A DNA stretch of 64,000 nt, taken from the IMG/VR virus record IMGVR_UViG_3300029288_007054, positions 1-64,000 of that record, one strand, 5' to 3'. This DNA comes from a virus (Duplodnaviria; Caudoviricetes). Below the pieces are notes generated by a model. It ran no database searches, was not told the origin of the DNA, and saw nothing but the letters and a program-made list of their open reading frames with translations. Every line of letters starts with the position of its first letter. Position 1 is the stretch's first letter. Made by a program: the position numbers and the translations under genes. Of the stretch, positions 1,322 to 63,718 are shown one piece after another.

Positions 1322-1996
1322 TTAATCCAAATTTAAGTGCTTCCACCTTTTCCTATTTATTATTTTGCCTATTTGTTGGCGACATACTTTGAACTTTTTA
1401 GATAAGTCCGTTTGAGTCATTCCTTTTTTTGCTAAATTATAAATTTTTCTTATTTGTTTTTCATTAAGTTTTGCCCCATAATGGTTCTCTCCCATTGGGA
1501 ACGTCCCATCGCTAATTCTTTTTTGAACACCAATACTGATACTATTCTTATGGGATGCTCCTAGCGTTTGGCCAGTATTCCATGGCTTTCTACCCTTCAT
1601 TTTTATTTTTATATTTAATCTGGCACTTAAAGATCTTACTTTCCCTCTGTTAGCATTACCTATTTTTATTTTGGTGCTTTCTGCTATTAAATGCCGTTCC
1701 GCTGTTCGATAATTATAACCATATTTGCGATTTCTACTTTTATAATACTCTATCCACTTATCTTCTTTTTTTAGAAGGGAACTATCTGAACATCTTTCTA
1801 TAATCACAAATTTGAAATTATCTTTACCGTATTTATTATAAGATTTTTGTAAATGAGGATTATGATGCTTATTTATCCTTAAATCATTTTTATGCTCTTT
1901 CCATCGTTTATTAAAACCCTTGTTACGACAAGTGCTTCCAATATAGACCTTTCCGTTCTTTAGGTTAAATATCCCGTATATCCCCGATGTCCTCAT
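1322..1996 (-). CDS. GIY-YIG homing endonuclease with NUMOD3-like segments and C-terminal HTH
   Basis: GIYGIFNLKNGKVYIGS, RWKEH, YGYN, KPWNTG, GENHYGAKL; start reassigned to ATG at 1996 (TAATG overlap with upstream small ORF, GGAGG SD). Confidence 0.9.
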   Translation of the reverse strand: MRTSGIYGIFNLKNGKVYIGSTCRNKGFNKRWKEHKNDLRINKHHNPHLQKSYNKYGKDNFKFVIIERCSDSSLLKKEDKWIEYYKSRNRKYGYNYRTAERHLIAESTKIKIGNANRGKVRSLSARLNIKIKMKGRKPWNTGQTLGASHKNSISIGVQKRISDGTFPMGENHYGAKLNEKQIRKIYNLAKKGMTQTDLSKKFKVCRQQIGKIINRKRWKHLNLD

Positions 1997-2157
1997 TATA
2001 CTTTTACCTCCCAAATACCCCTTAGAAGGCATTCTATGTATTCGGGTAGGGTTTGGTCTAGCTCTTCCCTTATAATCAATTGTGCATCAATGTGGTTCAT
2101 TCTTAGGTCTTCTATGAGCTGTTTAGCCCGTTCCGTTAGTGTTAGTTGGATCTGCAT
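1996..2157 (-). CDS. 53-aa small protein, possible ribbon-helix-helix regulator (copy 1)
   Basis: MQIQLTLTERAKQLIEDLRMNHIDAQLIIREELDQTLPEYIECLLRGIWEVKV; GGAG SD; homologous to 36671-36835; RHH fold is inferred from the strand-helix-helix pattern. Confidence 0.8.
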   Translation of the reverse strand: MQIQLTLTERAKQLIEDLRMNHIDAQLIIREELDQTLPEYIECLLRGIWEVKV

Positions 2158-2330
2158 TGTGGTAACTTCTCCTTGACTGAATAAAAAAGCACAAGCCCAA
2201 GGACGGTTCTGAGAAGTTACCACACCAAACAGAGGGGCCATCCAAGGACTTGTGCCGATTGTTATACTTACTGACTATCTGGTTTTTATGTGGTAACTTC
2301 ATGTATATATTATACAGTAAAAGTTACCTA
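2158..2330 (-). promoter_or_regulatory. sigma-70 promoter plus structured ~145-nt leader (copy 1)
   Basis: TGTATAAT extended -10 (TATAAT at 2309-2314); GAAGTTACCACA at 2289-2300 and over the RBS at 2158-2171; its complement at 2211-2224; stem arms 2246-2255/2189-2198 followed by U6 (2183-2188). Confidence 0.7.
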
Positions 2331-35084: not shown

Positions 35085-35789
35085 ATGTGGTTTAGTAAAT
35101 ACAAAAAAACAGATTTTAGCGGGGGCGATTTGCATAAAGATCCAGAACCACTAATGGAAAGTAGGGCTTTCTATGCATCTCCTCAATTTGTAGCTCCTAG
35201 AAGAATGGACTCAAGGGATATGTGCTTACGATCCTCTAATCAAGGACAAACACCTCACTGCGCTGGCTATTCAACAGCCGGATTTATTGAAGTTTTTAAT
35301 TGGCGCACAAAACATTACCCTGAACAATGCGATGGCGATCTAATATACACAGAAGCAAAAAAATTAGATGGTATGCCCCAAGTTAACGGAACAATATTAA
35401 GATGCGCAGGACAGGGCGCTATAAATGCGGGTTTGATTAAGGGTGTAGTAAAACAGGTGCCTAAAACAGAAATGGATATACAATTTGCAATACATACTTA
35501 CGGTGTGTGCGTAGCTGGGTTTATGATCACCGACGAGTGGAATTTAGTGGAGAAAACTACGGGAAAAATTAGTAACTTTGGAGATAAAGCAAGGATAATT
35601 GGCGGACATGCTTTGCTTTTAGCAGGATATTCTGACGAAGGAATCTACATACAAAACTCTTGGGGAGAGGAATGGGGTATTTATGGTTTCGGCATACTCT
35701 CATGGGAACAGTTTAATAAGCAAATAATGGATGCAATGGTCATAGTCCCCGAAGTATGGACACCGGAAAATTCAGTTAGAGCTGCGTAA
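35085..35789 (+). CDS. papain-like (C1A) cysteine peptidase
   Basis: NQGQTPHCAGYS (Gln/Cys), GGHALLLAGY (His), IQNSWG (Asn). Confidence 0.88.
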   Translation: MWFSKYKKTDFSGGDLHKDPEPLMESRAFYASPQFVAPRRMDSRDMCLRSSNQGQTPHCAGYSTAGFIEVFNWRTKHYPEQCDGDLIYTEAKKLDGMPQVNGTILRCAGQGAINAGLIKGVVKQVPKTEMDIQFAIHTYGVCVAGFMITDEWNLVEKTTGKISNFGDKARIIGGHALLLAGYSDEGIYIQNSWGEEWGIYGFGILSWEQFNKQIMDAMVIVPEVWTPENSVRAA

Positions 35790-36674
35790 TTTAAGTTTGC
35801 CCCATCTTCTTAAATTGTGGTCATCTCTAATGCCATTTTTGATTAAACATCTACTAACTGATGTTTGTCCACAACTTAATTTCTTAGCAATATCAATCTG
35901 TTTAAAACCTTTTTTATGCAGAGCCAAAATATCCCGACGCATTTTAGCCCATTTCTCTTTATTTTCTTGAACTCTATTTGGTTCAAGTTTACGCAACCTA
36001 AATACAACAGATGCACTATTATATCCAAGTTTTTTAGCTATTTGAACGGAATTAAGTTTTTTCTTTCTTAATTTGATAATCTTCTTTATATCTAATTTTT
36101 GAACACCATTATAGTTAGCAACCTTAAAATCAATTTTATCCTTCAGCTTCTTAAATTTCTCCACGTCTATTTGTTCCGTAATGTGACAATTTTTACACAA
36201 AACGTCACATTTCTTAATTTCATCAAGAAGCTTTTGAGGTATTTTCAGAAAAACCCTTTTAGAATGATAAGATCTATATATATTTAATTGTTTATCCTTT
36301 CTATCTCTATGATGAAACTCTAAACTAACAGCACTTTTGCCCTTATACCCACATCTACTACAACTATCCTGACCCTTTATTTTTAGCAACATTTCTTTAT
36401 TGGGATTGCTTATAGGATAATGCTCTTCCATATGACAGTTTGCACATAAAAGAATACATTTTTTAACTTCTTTCAGTGCTACATCCCAGTGTTTATTAAT
36501 CATTGAGTTAATTATGTCTTCTTTATCTTTCGTATGATGAAATGCCAAGACAAAGACATTATCATTTCCACACTTTTCGCATTTGCCTCCAAGCAAGTTT
36601 GTAGCCTTTATCTTCTTCGCCCATCTTCTAATAAAACTATCTTTTCTATCTTGGGCGTTAGACCTTTTCTTCAC
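35772..36674 (-). CDS. homing endonuclease with two HNH-like Zn domains and C-terminal HTHs
   Basis: GGKCEKCG..LAFHH..KCILLCANCH and CSRCG..LEFHH..KCDVLCKNCH; GTG start overlapping the upstream stop (GTGA). Confidence 0.85.
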   Translation of the reverse strand: MKKRSNAQDRKDSFIRRWAKKIKATNLLGGKCEKCGNDNVFVLAFHHTKDKEDIINSMINKHWDVALKEVKKCILLCANCHMEEHYPISNPNKEMLLKIKGQDSCSRCGYKGKSAVSLEFHHRDRKDKQLNIYRSYHSKRVFLKIPQKLLDEIKKCDVLCKNCHITEQIDVEKFKKLKDKIDFKVANYNGVQKLDIKKIIKLRKKKLNSVQIAKKLGYNSASVVFRLRKLEPNRVQENKEKWAKMRRDILALHKKGFKQIDIAKKLSCGQTSVSRCLIKNGIRDDHNLRRWGKLKLRSSN

Positions 36675-36835
36675 TTTACTACCTCCCCTAAAATACCCCT
36701 TAAAAGGTCTTCTATGTGTTCGGGTAGGGTTTGGTCTAGCTCTTCCTTTATAATCAATTGTGCGTCAAGGTGATGCATTCTTAAGTTTTCTATCATGGCT
36801 TTAGCTTCCTGCGTTATATTGACTTCTACTAACAT
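36671..36835 (-). CDS. 54-aa small protein, possible ribbon-helix-helix regulator (copy 2; absent from ORF track)
   Basis: Manual translation MLVEVNITQEAKAMIENLRMHHLDAQLIIKEELDQTLPEHIEDLLRGILGEVVK; AGGGAG SD; homologous to 1996-2157. Confidence 0.8.
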   Translation of the reverse strand: MLVEVNITQEAKAMIENLRMHHLDAQLIIKEELDQTLPEHIEDLLRGILGEVVK

Positions 36836-37003
36836 GGCGGTTCACTCCCTAGAAAAAGCAGACCCCTTAGCATTATTACTATCTGATGAACCGCCAAGCC
36901 CGACAGGTAGTTACTAAAGGGTCTACTTATTATTCTATTTTAATTTACTAATACTAACAGACTTTGGCGATTCATCTGTATATATTATACAAGAAAAATC
37001 ACC
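36835..37003 (-). promoter_or_regulatory. sigma-70 promoter plus structured ~142-nt leader (copy 2)
   Basis: TGTATAAT (TATAAT at 36984-36989); GATGAATCGCCAA at 36964-36976; complement at 36885-36897; TGAACCGCCA at 36835-36844 between SD and ATG; stem arms 36914-36927/36857-36870 followed by a U-run. Confidence 0.7.
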
Positions 37004-48505: not shown

Positions 48506-48585
48506 GACTATTATTATTCATATTAACCCATAAAAAACCCTTTTAAAAAGGTATTTTTTCGATATATCTTGTATAATATTAGTGT

Positions 48586-49155
48586 ATGAAGAAATCATCA
48601 AACACTAAGAAAGTAAAATTAGAATCTCTTCCGAAGATAAAACGAAGATTATTCAAGCTTTGGTCTGAGGCTGTCCGGGAAAGATCAGGATTTAAATGCG
48701 AATTTTGCGGTATTGAAAATAAAGCAATAAATATTAACGGTATAGCTACGAAAATTGACGCACATCATTTAATCTCAAGAAAGATAAAAGATTTTCCATT
48801 AAAGTTCGCAATAGATATGGGCGTTGCTGTATGTCCAATTTGCCATAAGTGGGGAATTCCATCGTTTCACAGAGACCCTGTTACTACCATAACATGGCTC
48901 ATAAAAAACAAACCCGAACGCTATAATTTTGTTCTAGAGAACGTAAACGTAAGAATCGATCTAGACAACAGGGCTGTTCTAGCTGAGATAGAAGCTAGAT
49001 TAATAGCCAAAGAATCTCTTGACCTGAATAAACTTAAAGAAATAGAAAAACAATTTCCTAGAGAAATTAAACCTAAGAAAGAAAAAATAGTAGGAACTCT
49101 CTTTGAAGATGACGAACCATCTTTACCTGTAGAAACTAAATCAGACGCTATCTAA
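48586..49155 (+). CDS. NinG/HNH-like nuclease
   Basis: LFKLWSEAVRERSGFKCEFCG...DAHHLISR...CPICH. Confidence 0.7.
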   Translation: MKKSSNTKKVKLESLPKIKRRLFKLWSEAVRERSGFKCEFCGIENKAININGIATKIDAHHLISRKIKDFPLKFAIDMGVAVCPICHKWGIPSFHRDPVTTITWLIKNKPERYNFVLENVNVRIDLDNRAVLAEIEARLIAKESLDLNKLKEIEKQFPREIKPKKEKIVGTLFEDDEPSLPVETKSDAI

Positions 49156-63077: not shown

Positions 63078-63718
63078 TTATCAACTTCGAGTTTAGCTAC
63101 TGCATAATCATTAATTATACAGATTCCAATCTCTTCCGTAACAGTCCATTTTTTACAAAATTCGTCAGCCATTTTATTTCGCCTCTTTGCTTCTTCTACT
63201 TTTTCTTCGTAAGTCATTTCTTTGGGTGGATCTAGATAATAATGGCCGTTCTCACTTTCAACACTAATGCCACAACTTTTACACTTAAAAACAATTTTAT
63301 AATGATTTTCCCATACCCCGTTTTTATCAGGGCCGCTACTAAGGCATTCTAATGGCTGATTTGTCACCTTATCTAATTCTTCTCTAATTACGTCACCGCC
63401 ACACTTGCTACATGTATAAATATAACCCTCAAAACATCCCGGTATTCCTTTTAAAATTTTACTGTCCTCAGAAACATACCATGCTATATATTTTTCCCTT
63501 TCGCCCATCTCTTTAACTTGCAAGGTAAAAGTTTTGTGACATTTTTCACATTCACATTGGGTCGTTAAATGATTATTGTACCCGCCCACTAAAGTTTCAA
63601 AGGTTCCGTTATTCTTAACTTTTTCAGAATTACAATAAGGGCAAATGAGCTTATCACGGTGGATTTTGGGATCATGCCGTTCTTTAACGATATCTAAAAA
63701 TGCGTTGTACTTTGCCAT
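63074..63718 (-). CDS. multi-Zn-ribbon hypothetical protein
   Basis: CPYC, CEKC, CSKC, CKSC pairs. Confidence 0.7.
   Translation of the reverse strand: MAKYNAFLDIVKERHDPKIHRDKLICPYCNSEKVKNNGTFETLVGGYNNHLTTQCECEKCHKTFTLQVKEMGEREKYIAWYVSEDSKILKGIPGCFEGYIYTCSKCGGDVIREELDKVTNQPLECLSSGPDKNGVWENHYKIVFKCKSCGISVESENGHYYLDPPKEMTYEEKVEEAKRRNKMADEFCKKWTVTEEIGICIINDYAVAKLEVDK

Follow-up and report, generated by a model that had tools for sequence, protein, structure and literature searches.

The virus record from which the DNA derives is 90,445 bp long with 36% G+C, and the window, by which we mean the whole stretch analyzed, covers 64,000 nucleotides of it. A first-pass annotation, made from the letters of the window alone, had flagged two leaders as copies of a candidate regulatory RNA switch. 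Both leaders lie on the minus strand, as do all features below unless stated otherwise, and they belong to two cassettes of identical layout. Each cassette begins with the same 15-nt motif, TGTATAATATATACA, followed by a leader of ~140 nt, an ORF of 53 or 54 amino acids, and a nuclease gene whose start codon overlaps the stop codon of the small ORF.

In cassette 1, the small ORF (P0001; 1996..2157) encodes a conserved protein of 53 amino acids with a strand-helix-helix model, and the gene that follows (1322..1996) encodes a GIY-YIG homing endonuclease with a C-terminal HTH (PF01541, 3.6e-10; phrog_314 and phrog_7168, both annotated as homing endonuclease). In cassette 2, the conserved 54-amino-acid ORF (P0002; 36671..36835), 64% identical to P0001, precedes a gene for an HNH-type endonuclease with an HTH tail (35772..36674; phrog_2255, 8.9e-31, HNH endonuclease). 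Cassettes 1 and 2 are thus free-standing homing-endonuclease (HE) cassettes with a common expression module. The genes upstream of them are co-oriented and leave no room for a terminator; in cassette 2, the upstream gene (247 aa) ends with a stop codon that overlaps leader segment a, described below.

The cassette 1 nuclease starts at the ATG within TAATG, and its Shine-Dalgarno (SD) sequence, GGAGG, lies inside the C-terminal codons of the small ORF. The cassette 2 nuclease starts with GTG, and the overlap reads GTGA. In both copies, conserved C-terminal codons of the small ORF, specifying G-E-V, encode this SD (1994-2012 and 36672-36690). Because small-ORF stop and nuclease start overlap, translation of the nuclease is probably coupled to that of the small ORF.

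The small ORF is represented in 21 clusters that share the motif LRxNHID...IIxEEL.Q.LP..IE. In an AF2 model (pLDDT 89), the protein starts with an extended segment and continues with two helices. The top Foldseek matches are all ribbon-helix-helix (RHH) antitoxins at E values of 3.7-10, which are not significant. No match was found in Pfam, PHROGs or PDB sequences, and a protein atlas gave low-score DUF779 leads only. The variable part of the protein is its N-terminal strand. A similarity to the small ORF at 63308-63391 was dismissed as a weak chance match inside a 214-aa zinc-finger protein.

Leader segments and the promoter motif

Four mutually complementary segments, termed a, X1, X' and X2, recur at corresponding places in each leader. 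The coordinates and sequences that the first-pass annotation had assigned to these elements (segment a was not among them) proved correct on the minus strand in both copies. In cassette 1, segment a (GGTAACTTT, 2320..2328) lies in the promoter spacer upstream of the -10 element and is complementary to X1. The promoter motif TGTATAATATATACA (2302..2316) contains the -10 sequence TATAAT at 2309-2314, and the predicted transcription start at ~2302 is the A of a 5'-terminal AUG. X1 (GAAGTTACCACAT, 2288..2300, with core GAAGTTACCACA at 2289-2300) lies where RNA from the promoter is predicted to begin. X' (GGTGTGGTAACTTCTC, 2211..2226, with core TGTGGTAACTTCTC at 2211-2224) belongs to the apical portion of a long hairpin and is complementary to both X1 and X2. 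X2 (2155..2172) spans the SD (GGAG), the spacer and the small-ORF AUG, and its core GAGAAGTTACCACA (2158-2171) is immediately 5' of the ATG at 2155-2157. The X1:X' helix has 13 bp including one G-U, and it is predicted to form with a probability of 0.93 once X' has been transcribed; X':X2 is a perfect 14-bp helix. The X1:X' pairing is extended by ACCAGATAG (2275..2283) with CTGTTTGGT (~2225-2233), and the corresponding extension in type B, AACAAATAG/CTGTTTGTT, carries a compensatory change of C-G to A-U.

The long hairpin of cassette 1 and its U-run occupy 2183..2256. The base pairs GCACAAGTCC (2246-2255) with GGGCTTGTGC (2189-2198) and is followed by T6 (U-run, 2183-2188), and an upper stem pairs GGATGG (2238-2243) with CCGTCC (2201-2206). 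This hairpin is both the minimum free energy (MFE) and the centroid fold, with a stem probability of 0.99, and it looks like an intrinsic terminator that displays X'.

Cassette 2 repeats the arrangement: segment a (GGTGATTT, 36996..37003), the promoter motif TGTATAATATATACA (36977..36991), X1 (GATGAATCGCCAA) with the extension AGTCTG (36958..36976; X1 proper 36964-36976), a long hairpin with U-run (36853..36927; 14-bp stem of 36914-36927 with 36857-36870, stem probability 1.0), X' (TTGGCGGTTCATC) with a 5' extension (36885..36902; X' proper 36885-36897), and X2 (GTGAACCGCCA) with the AUG (36833..36846; X2 proper 36835-36844). Its X1:X' helix has 13 bp with one G-U and reaches ~18-19 bp in the MFE structure, and its X':X2 helix has 11 bp with one G-U. 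Because X' has U and G at the two positions that distinguish X1 from X2, it can pair with both. The earlier observation that every mismatch in these helices is a wobble holds: in helices of 11-14 bp, G-U is the sole non-Watson-Crick pair. After the enclosing stems of the two copies come runs of T5-6.

The a:X1 stem encloses the -10 element in the local MFE structure of 11 of 11 cassettes. In cassette 1, this hairpin has a local MFE of -14.1 kcal/mol, a value equalled by 0.3% of shuffled sequences, and in cassette 2 the ΔG is -16.3, with none of 300 shuffles as good. Given its position ahead of the predicted start, segment a is expected to be present only in read-through RNA. This strengthens the earlier suggestion that read-through transcripts may fold differently, given that segment a also covaries (see below).

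The motif TGTATAAT(A) occurs ~24 times on the minus strand and 3 times on the plus strand of the whole genome, mostly in intergenic positions; by a rough estimate, base composition would predict about 5.6 minus-strand occurrences. The minus-strand sites include 2316, 20966, 22026, 36991, 45553, 46656, 53943 and 59787. No recognizable -35 element was seen at TGTATAAT sites. The motif is probably this phage's general promoter type; late promoters of phage T4 likewise carry only a -10 element. The TGTATAAT sites sit 20-60 nt before ORFs.

The 15-mer itself (2302-2316 and 36977-36991) is a perfect palindrome, TGTATA-ATA-TATACA, and together with a and X1 it forms a palindrome of ~40 bp centered on the -10 element. 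The inner palindrome is lost in the distant cassettes L015, L009 and C3, where TATAAT is kept.

A reading frame opened by the predicted 5'-terminal AUG runs through 59 codons in cassette 1 (2123..2302), across the hairpin and X2, and ends 32 nt beyond the main AUG, which makes it a candidate leaderless uORF. In all six leaders of types A, B and G this frame has no stop codon, compared with two to six stops in the other two frames, and shuffled leaders hold it open in 5-7% of cases. In types C3, D, E and F the frame has 2-33 codons or is absent. Elsewhere in the window, an HNH-like ORF of 189 aa (48570-49155, plus strand) with the motifs CEFCG and DAHHLISR has its ATG 8 nt after TGTATAAT and no SD, so that its mRNA looks leaderless, and at several further TGTATAAT sites ATGAA follows at the same distance. 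The open frame in types A, B and G, together with the position of the 189-aa gene, makes leaderless translation of a uORF a plausible additional input.

A third cassette and metagenomic relatives

The genome was scanned for a -10 hexamer followed by an X1:X' pairing of at least 10 bp and then a start codon at which X' and X2 pair over at least 9 bp. Exactly three loci were found in the 90 kb, and they precede the only three HE-like genes detected in the genome. When forty shuffled genomes were scanned in the same way, the mean was 0.45 loci and the maximum 2. The third cassette, C3 (L017 940-2033), lies outside the window at ~69,940-71,032 of the genome, also on the minus strand, with its leader at ~70,901-71,032. 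It has the promoter TGGTATAAT, segment a (CTTATGG), X1 (TGCCATGAGATTTAGT), X' (ACTAGATCTCATGGCA) in a long hairpin without a U-tract, and X2 (TATGGGATCTA) on the AUG of the nuclease gene itself. Three DUF4379 zinc-ribbon repeats occur in this 320-aa nuclease, and a SpoVS-like gene lies upstream. C3 has no small ORF, and its X sequence is unrelated to those of cassettes 1 and 2, yet the layout of a, X1, X' and X2 is kept.

Relatives were found in 11 metagenomic loci, and leaders were recovered from L001-L009, L011, L012 and L015/L016, giving a sample of ~13 loci of which several are closely related. A match at L014 proved to be a spurious terminase match and not a relative. Counting C3, eight X sequence types are represented, among them GAAGTTACC, GAAGTCACC, GAAGTCGCC, GGAATCGCC, GAAACGACC and GAAATCGCT, and in every cassette X1 starts 7-9 nt past the -10 element. 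Small-ORF homologues occur only in metagenomes. A cultured-phage collection contained no DNA or protein match, IMG/VR scans with the small ORF and the C3 nuclease gave no match, and scans of genome contigs were empty.

The nucleases downstream in relatives are GIY-YIG, DUF4379, or Hint-like/unknown proteins, and the flanking phage genes also vary. Because both differ among relatives, the mobile part is the unit from promoter to nuclease. With cassette 2 included, the partners of the small ORF comprise GIY-YIG, HNH, DUF4379 zinc-ribbon and Hint-like/unknown nucleases, which do not form one toxin family.

Covariation, folding and putative termination

To assess pairing across types, a permutation test was applied to seven sequence types, with fixed windows set only by the -10 element and the ATG and with summed duplex energy as the score. 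The cognate assignment had the lowest energy of all permutations for the hairpin region against X2 (1/5040), for X1 against the hairpin region (1/720), and for a against X1 (1/720). A covariance model was then built on the hairpin stem alone and used to align all leaders, so that the alignment was not fitted to the X':X2 helix. In this alignment, 89.9% of X':X2 cells are paired, compared with 40-55% when the segments are slid against each other; seven pairs are changed on both sides, and none of 500 shuffles matches the observed score. For the hairpin stem, 95.7% of cells are paired, compared with 30-52% when slid, and 16 of 20 pairs are changed on both sides. X1:X' has 72.9% of cells paired, compared with 37-49% when slid, with a covariation score matched by 2 of 500 shuffles, although this count was made with types D and E out of register. 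Because MAFFT misplaces X1 of types D and E and the whole of L012, the X1:X' counts are conservative.

Thus, the leaders contain three mutually exclusive pairings, a:X1, X1:X' and X':X2, each of which covaries across seven to eight types. This bears out the proposal that X' can pair either with the 5' copy of X or with the copy at the SD and AUG. Because X':X2 spans the SD and AUG, a conserved RNA helix takes in the start region for HE translation. At positions that distinguish X1 from X2, X' has G or U in types E, C3 and L002. The X1:X' extension is absent from X2 and a and changes in a compensatory manner, which indicates pairing at the RNA level. A role in RNA is favored over one in DNA by the wobble-compatible X', the independently covarying extension, and the consistent position of X2 on the SD and AUG. 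Cross-pairing between X types is at background level, except that types A and B cross-pair via one wobble.

Beyond the promoter, the SD and parts of the stem, the leaders share little sequence, and the pairing segments vary. No conserved unpaired core of the kind associated with ligand binding is visible across leaders, and a riboswitch in the strict sense is therefore unlikely. A search of Rfam 15 gave no match at gathering score in the 64-kb window, and the two leaders produced only sub-threshold miRNA-like and other noise matches. A group I intron or guide-RNA element was ruled out by the lack of an Rfam match together with the distinct, intact flanking genes. Covariance-model matches at window position 48570 and at L013 1105 were set aside as weak and due to the promoter motif alone. 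On this sequence evidence, the leader is a conserved, covarying cis-regulatory RNA that is specific to HE cassettes and absent from Rfam.

The base of the long stem, 8-14 bp, covaries, and it is followed by U5-7 in all cassettes that carry the small ORF; the U-tract is kept in seven of eight types, the exception being C3. As the first-pass annotation had suggested, the enclosing stem and U-run look like an intrinsic terminator, and a simple terminator scanner misses the hairpin because its loop is long. However, the same annotation had X1:X' competing with this stem, and this was not borne out: the stem base has a probability of at least 0.8 at equilibrium in both RNA species, whatever the 5' end. 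X1:X' was therefore rejected as a thermodynamic antiterminator, as it does not displace the terminator stem at equilibrium. Because C3 has the three-way pairing and no U-tract, the common core of the system appears to be gating of the translation start and not termination.

All folding models used were pseudoknot-free, and the terminator hairpin dominates their equilibrium folds. In nascent promoter-initiated RNA, X1:X' has a probability of 0.82-1.0 when X' has just been transcribed. Plain equilibrium folding shows no consistent difference in SD accessibility between the RNA species. When the hairpin arms are masked, promoter-initiated RNAs of type E (W2, L001 and L007) give probabilities of 0.56-0.92 for X1:X' with the start region 0.46-0.65 unpaired, whereas read-through RNAs give 0.90-0.95 for X':X2 with the start region ~0.30 unpaired; for cassette 2, X':X2 falls from 0.90 in read-through RNA to 0.00 when the RNA starts at the promoter. 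Under the same masking, types A, B, D and G favor X':X2 in both RNA species, and L012 and C3 favor X1:X' in both. Of the earlier idea that alternative pairing sets ON and OFF states, the pairings thus stand, since they covary, but a clean equilibrium difference appears only for the type of copy 2, type E. Because only type E switches cleanly, the outcome must depend on kinetics or on pseudoknotted states. X1:X' is thermodynamically stronger than a:X1 in most types, even in read-through RNA, so that segment a would have to act kinetically or only once X2 has been made.

Models of leader function

The segments are complementary to one another and covary, they lie at defined places around the promoter motif, hairpin and start codon, and the ORFs are coupled. 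From these observations, we tentatively propose, with a probability of roughly 0.45, that the leader is a ligand-free, four-segment RNA gate on mobile HE cassettes that senses where its transcript started. Segment a would lie upstream of the start site, X1 at it, X' in the hairpin apex, and X2 would be the SD and AUG, and the gate would set translation of the cassette genes, and perhaps transcription into the cassette, according to transcript start. We infer the transcription start site, the order of helix folding, the ON or OFF outcome and termination to be as follows. In RNA that reads through from upstream genes, a:X1 would close around the -10 sequence and leave X' available; the hairpin and terminator would form, and X':X2 would hide the ribosome-binding site (RBS), giving the OFF state. 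In promoter-initiated RNA, which lacks a, X1 at the extreme 5' end would capture X' as soon as it is made, so that X2 would emerge unpaired and the small ORF would be translated, a state that is ON but possibly brief. The nuclease would be translated too, through the overlapping stop and start codons. In the A/B/G clade, the 5'-AUG frame across the hairpin and X2 may add leaderless uORF translation that is specific to promoter-initiated RNA. Since one type alone switches cleanly and the terminator is not displaced, the trigger in this gate is a proposed one.

Other readings have to be weighed against this gate. All of the relevant RNA might come from the cassette promoter and be mostly terminated at the hairpin and U-tract to yield ~120 nt of RNA, in which case the leader would be a cis attenuator or kinetic timer, essentially as the first-pass annotation had it: RNA that escapes would form X1:X' first, allow a short window of translation, and relax to X':X2. 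In a variant, the balance would depend on some further factor, whether a protein, temperature or ribosomes at the 5' AUG. On either version, segment a would be incidental or act in DNA. The strong, covarying terminator-like hairpin fits such a timer. X1:X' dominates in nascent RNA, whereas equilibrium folds of types A, B, D and G are dominated by X':X2, which is what marks a kinetic trap. The 5'-AUG frame, which has no stop anywhere in the leaders of types A, B and G, is also in its favor, as is the apparently leaderless 189-aa gene, which suggests that initiation at a 5' AUG occurs in this phage. However, a timer leaves the covariation of a with X1 in every cassette unexplained, has to accommodate C3 without a U-tract and a uORF that types C3, D, E and F lack or have only in short form, and finds no conserved unpaired core that would suggest a ligand or protein site. 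We consider it rather unlikely.

The remaining explanations are less probable still. The terminated leader could act in trans, its X' repressing the X2 of cassette mRNAs of the same type while X1 serves as a decoy, and X types would then be specificity or "incompatibility" groups between cassettes or co-infecting phages. A terminator hairpin with a U-tract and a loop complementary to the RBS resembles hairpin-loop antisense regulators; moreover, three cassettes in one genome carry three unrelated X types with cross-pairing at background, and X has undergone many coordinated changes despite a well-conserved promoter and ORF. Yet C3, having no U-tract, would yield no defined small RNA, types A and B cross-pair through a wobble, pairing in cis is always kinetically favored, and coordinated change is also expected from cis constraint alone via G-U intermediates, so that we give antisense action little credence. 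Equally little can be given to the idea that the X repeats, especially a and X1 flanking the -10 element, are DNA operators at which the RHH-like small protein or the nuclease represses its own promoter. The strand-helix-helix model with RHH antitoxins as its nearest, weakly matching folds (E > 3), the variability of the N-terminal strand, and the ~40-bp palindrome that a/X1 and TGTATA-ATA-TATACA form on the -10 element are all compatible with operators. Precedents exist in RHH antitoxins, which repress their own promoters, in Arc, which represses IS605 promoters (bioRxiv 10.64898/2026.09.24.754181), and in I-TevI, which represses its own promoter (PMC2988022). Against operators, C3 has all four segments and no small ORF, the same X type occurs with different nucleases, and the N-terminal variants are not distributed by X type: types A and C differ in X yet have the same strand, and B, 1 nt away from A, has a quite different strand. 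Moreover, X2 sits exactly on the SD and AUG and X' in the hairpin apex, RNA is indicated by differences that wobble pairs can accommodate and by the X1:X' extension that covaries on its own, the X'-X2 spacing ranges over ~50-70 bp, and the RHH assignment comes with no Pfam or PDB sequence match. A broader version of the gate, in which the leader is a portable RNA lock whose X sequence can be rewritten at four places and which reads the identity of the 5' end, possibly with leaderless translation across the terminator, and whose terminated form may, in co-infections, repress in trans in a type-specific manner, is quite unlikely. If true, selfish nuclease cassettes would gain something like the incompatibility groups of plasmids.

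The proposed gate has its closest counterpart in T-even phages. The genes for T4 I-TevI, I-TevII, I-TevIII and segB, and mobE of Aeh1, have RBS-sequestering hairpins that are relieved in transcripts from internal promoters, and the control of mobE adds terminators (PMC2988022). As in those systems, the HE gene here lies within a phage transcription unit, an RNA helix would hide the RBS on read-through, and an internal promoter lies inside a hairpin so that its own transcripts lack the 5' arm. However, in T4 the hairpin that encloses the promoter pairs directly with the RBS, whereas here it pairs with X1, a copy of the start region, and X' on a separate long hairpin would relay the state to an RBS ~140 nt downstream. 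Because X' is ~75-80 nt downstream of the predicted start and the upstream arm a pairs with X1 and not with the RBS, the arrangement is a relay and not a direct one. Four segments are involved, compared with two in T4, a conserved small ORF separates leader and nuclease, and the leaders have no sequence similarity to the T4 elements.

The alternation of 1:2 and 3:4 with 2:3 pairings is shared with the trp and ermC attenuators, as are a 3:4 helix that hides the SD (ermC) and a terminator in the leader. In contrast to those, where a stalled ribosome masks segment 1, the choice of start would remove it here, no leader peptide with sensing codons appears to be conserved, and the terminator is a separate hairpin with segment 3 in its apex. 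In the rep systems of IncI-alpha/IncB plasmids (repY/repZ), the loop of structure I is complementary to a downstream RBS, an upstream short ORF is coupled, the loop-RBS pseudoknot activates translation, and an antisense RNA from the opposite strand blocks the pairing. An RBS-complementary hairpin loop and a coupled upstream ORF are common to both; however, pairing in the cassettes covers the SD and AUG and should inhibit, and no opposite-strand promoter was seen at the leaders. Modules with RHH repressors, such as type II antitoxins and Arc of IS605, are alike in having a small protein gene just upstream of and overlapping the nuclease gene and a palindromic promoter. They differ in that the similarity here is confined to a strand-helix-helix model (Foldseek E > 3, no Pfam match), that the partner nucleases are interchangeable HEs and not one toxin family, and that the repeats are of RNA type. 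The leader is best placed with promoter-dependent RBS sequestration and attenuation, as a variant.

HEs need low, well-timed expression wherever they are inserted, and to our knowledge well-studied solutions come only from T-even phages. The cassettes carry a self-contained, covarying control module, a promoter with a putative RNA gate, which in uncultivated phages accompanies at least four unrelated types of nuclease. Should the proposed logic prove right, the module would be a natural device that needs no ligand to tell which promoter an RNA came from, of interest for the biology of mobile elements. It would also have value for annotation, as a new RNA family marking HE cassettes, and for design, because exchangeable pairing segments might serve as an insulator part.

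Two of the metagenomic relatives stand out. L005 (1-1301) has the hairpin, X' and X2 (type GAAGTCGCC) without promoter, segment a or X1, in place of which a 366-aa ORF with no Pfam match extends into the leader. Rearrangement or chimerism may account for this cassette copy. In L003 (3254-4312), a 352-aa protein with weak, sub-threshold matches to Hint/intein-splicing domains is coupled to the small ORF and may represent another kind of mobile nuclease partner.
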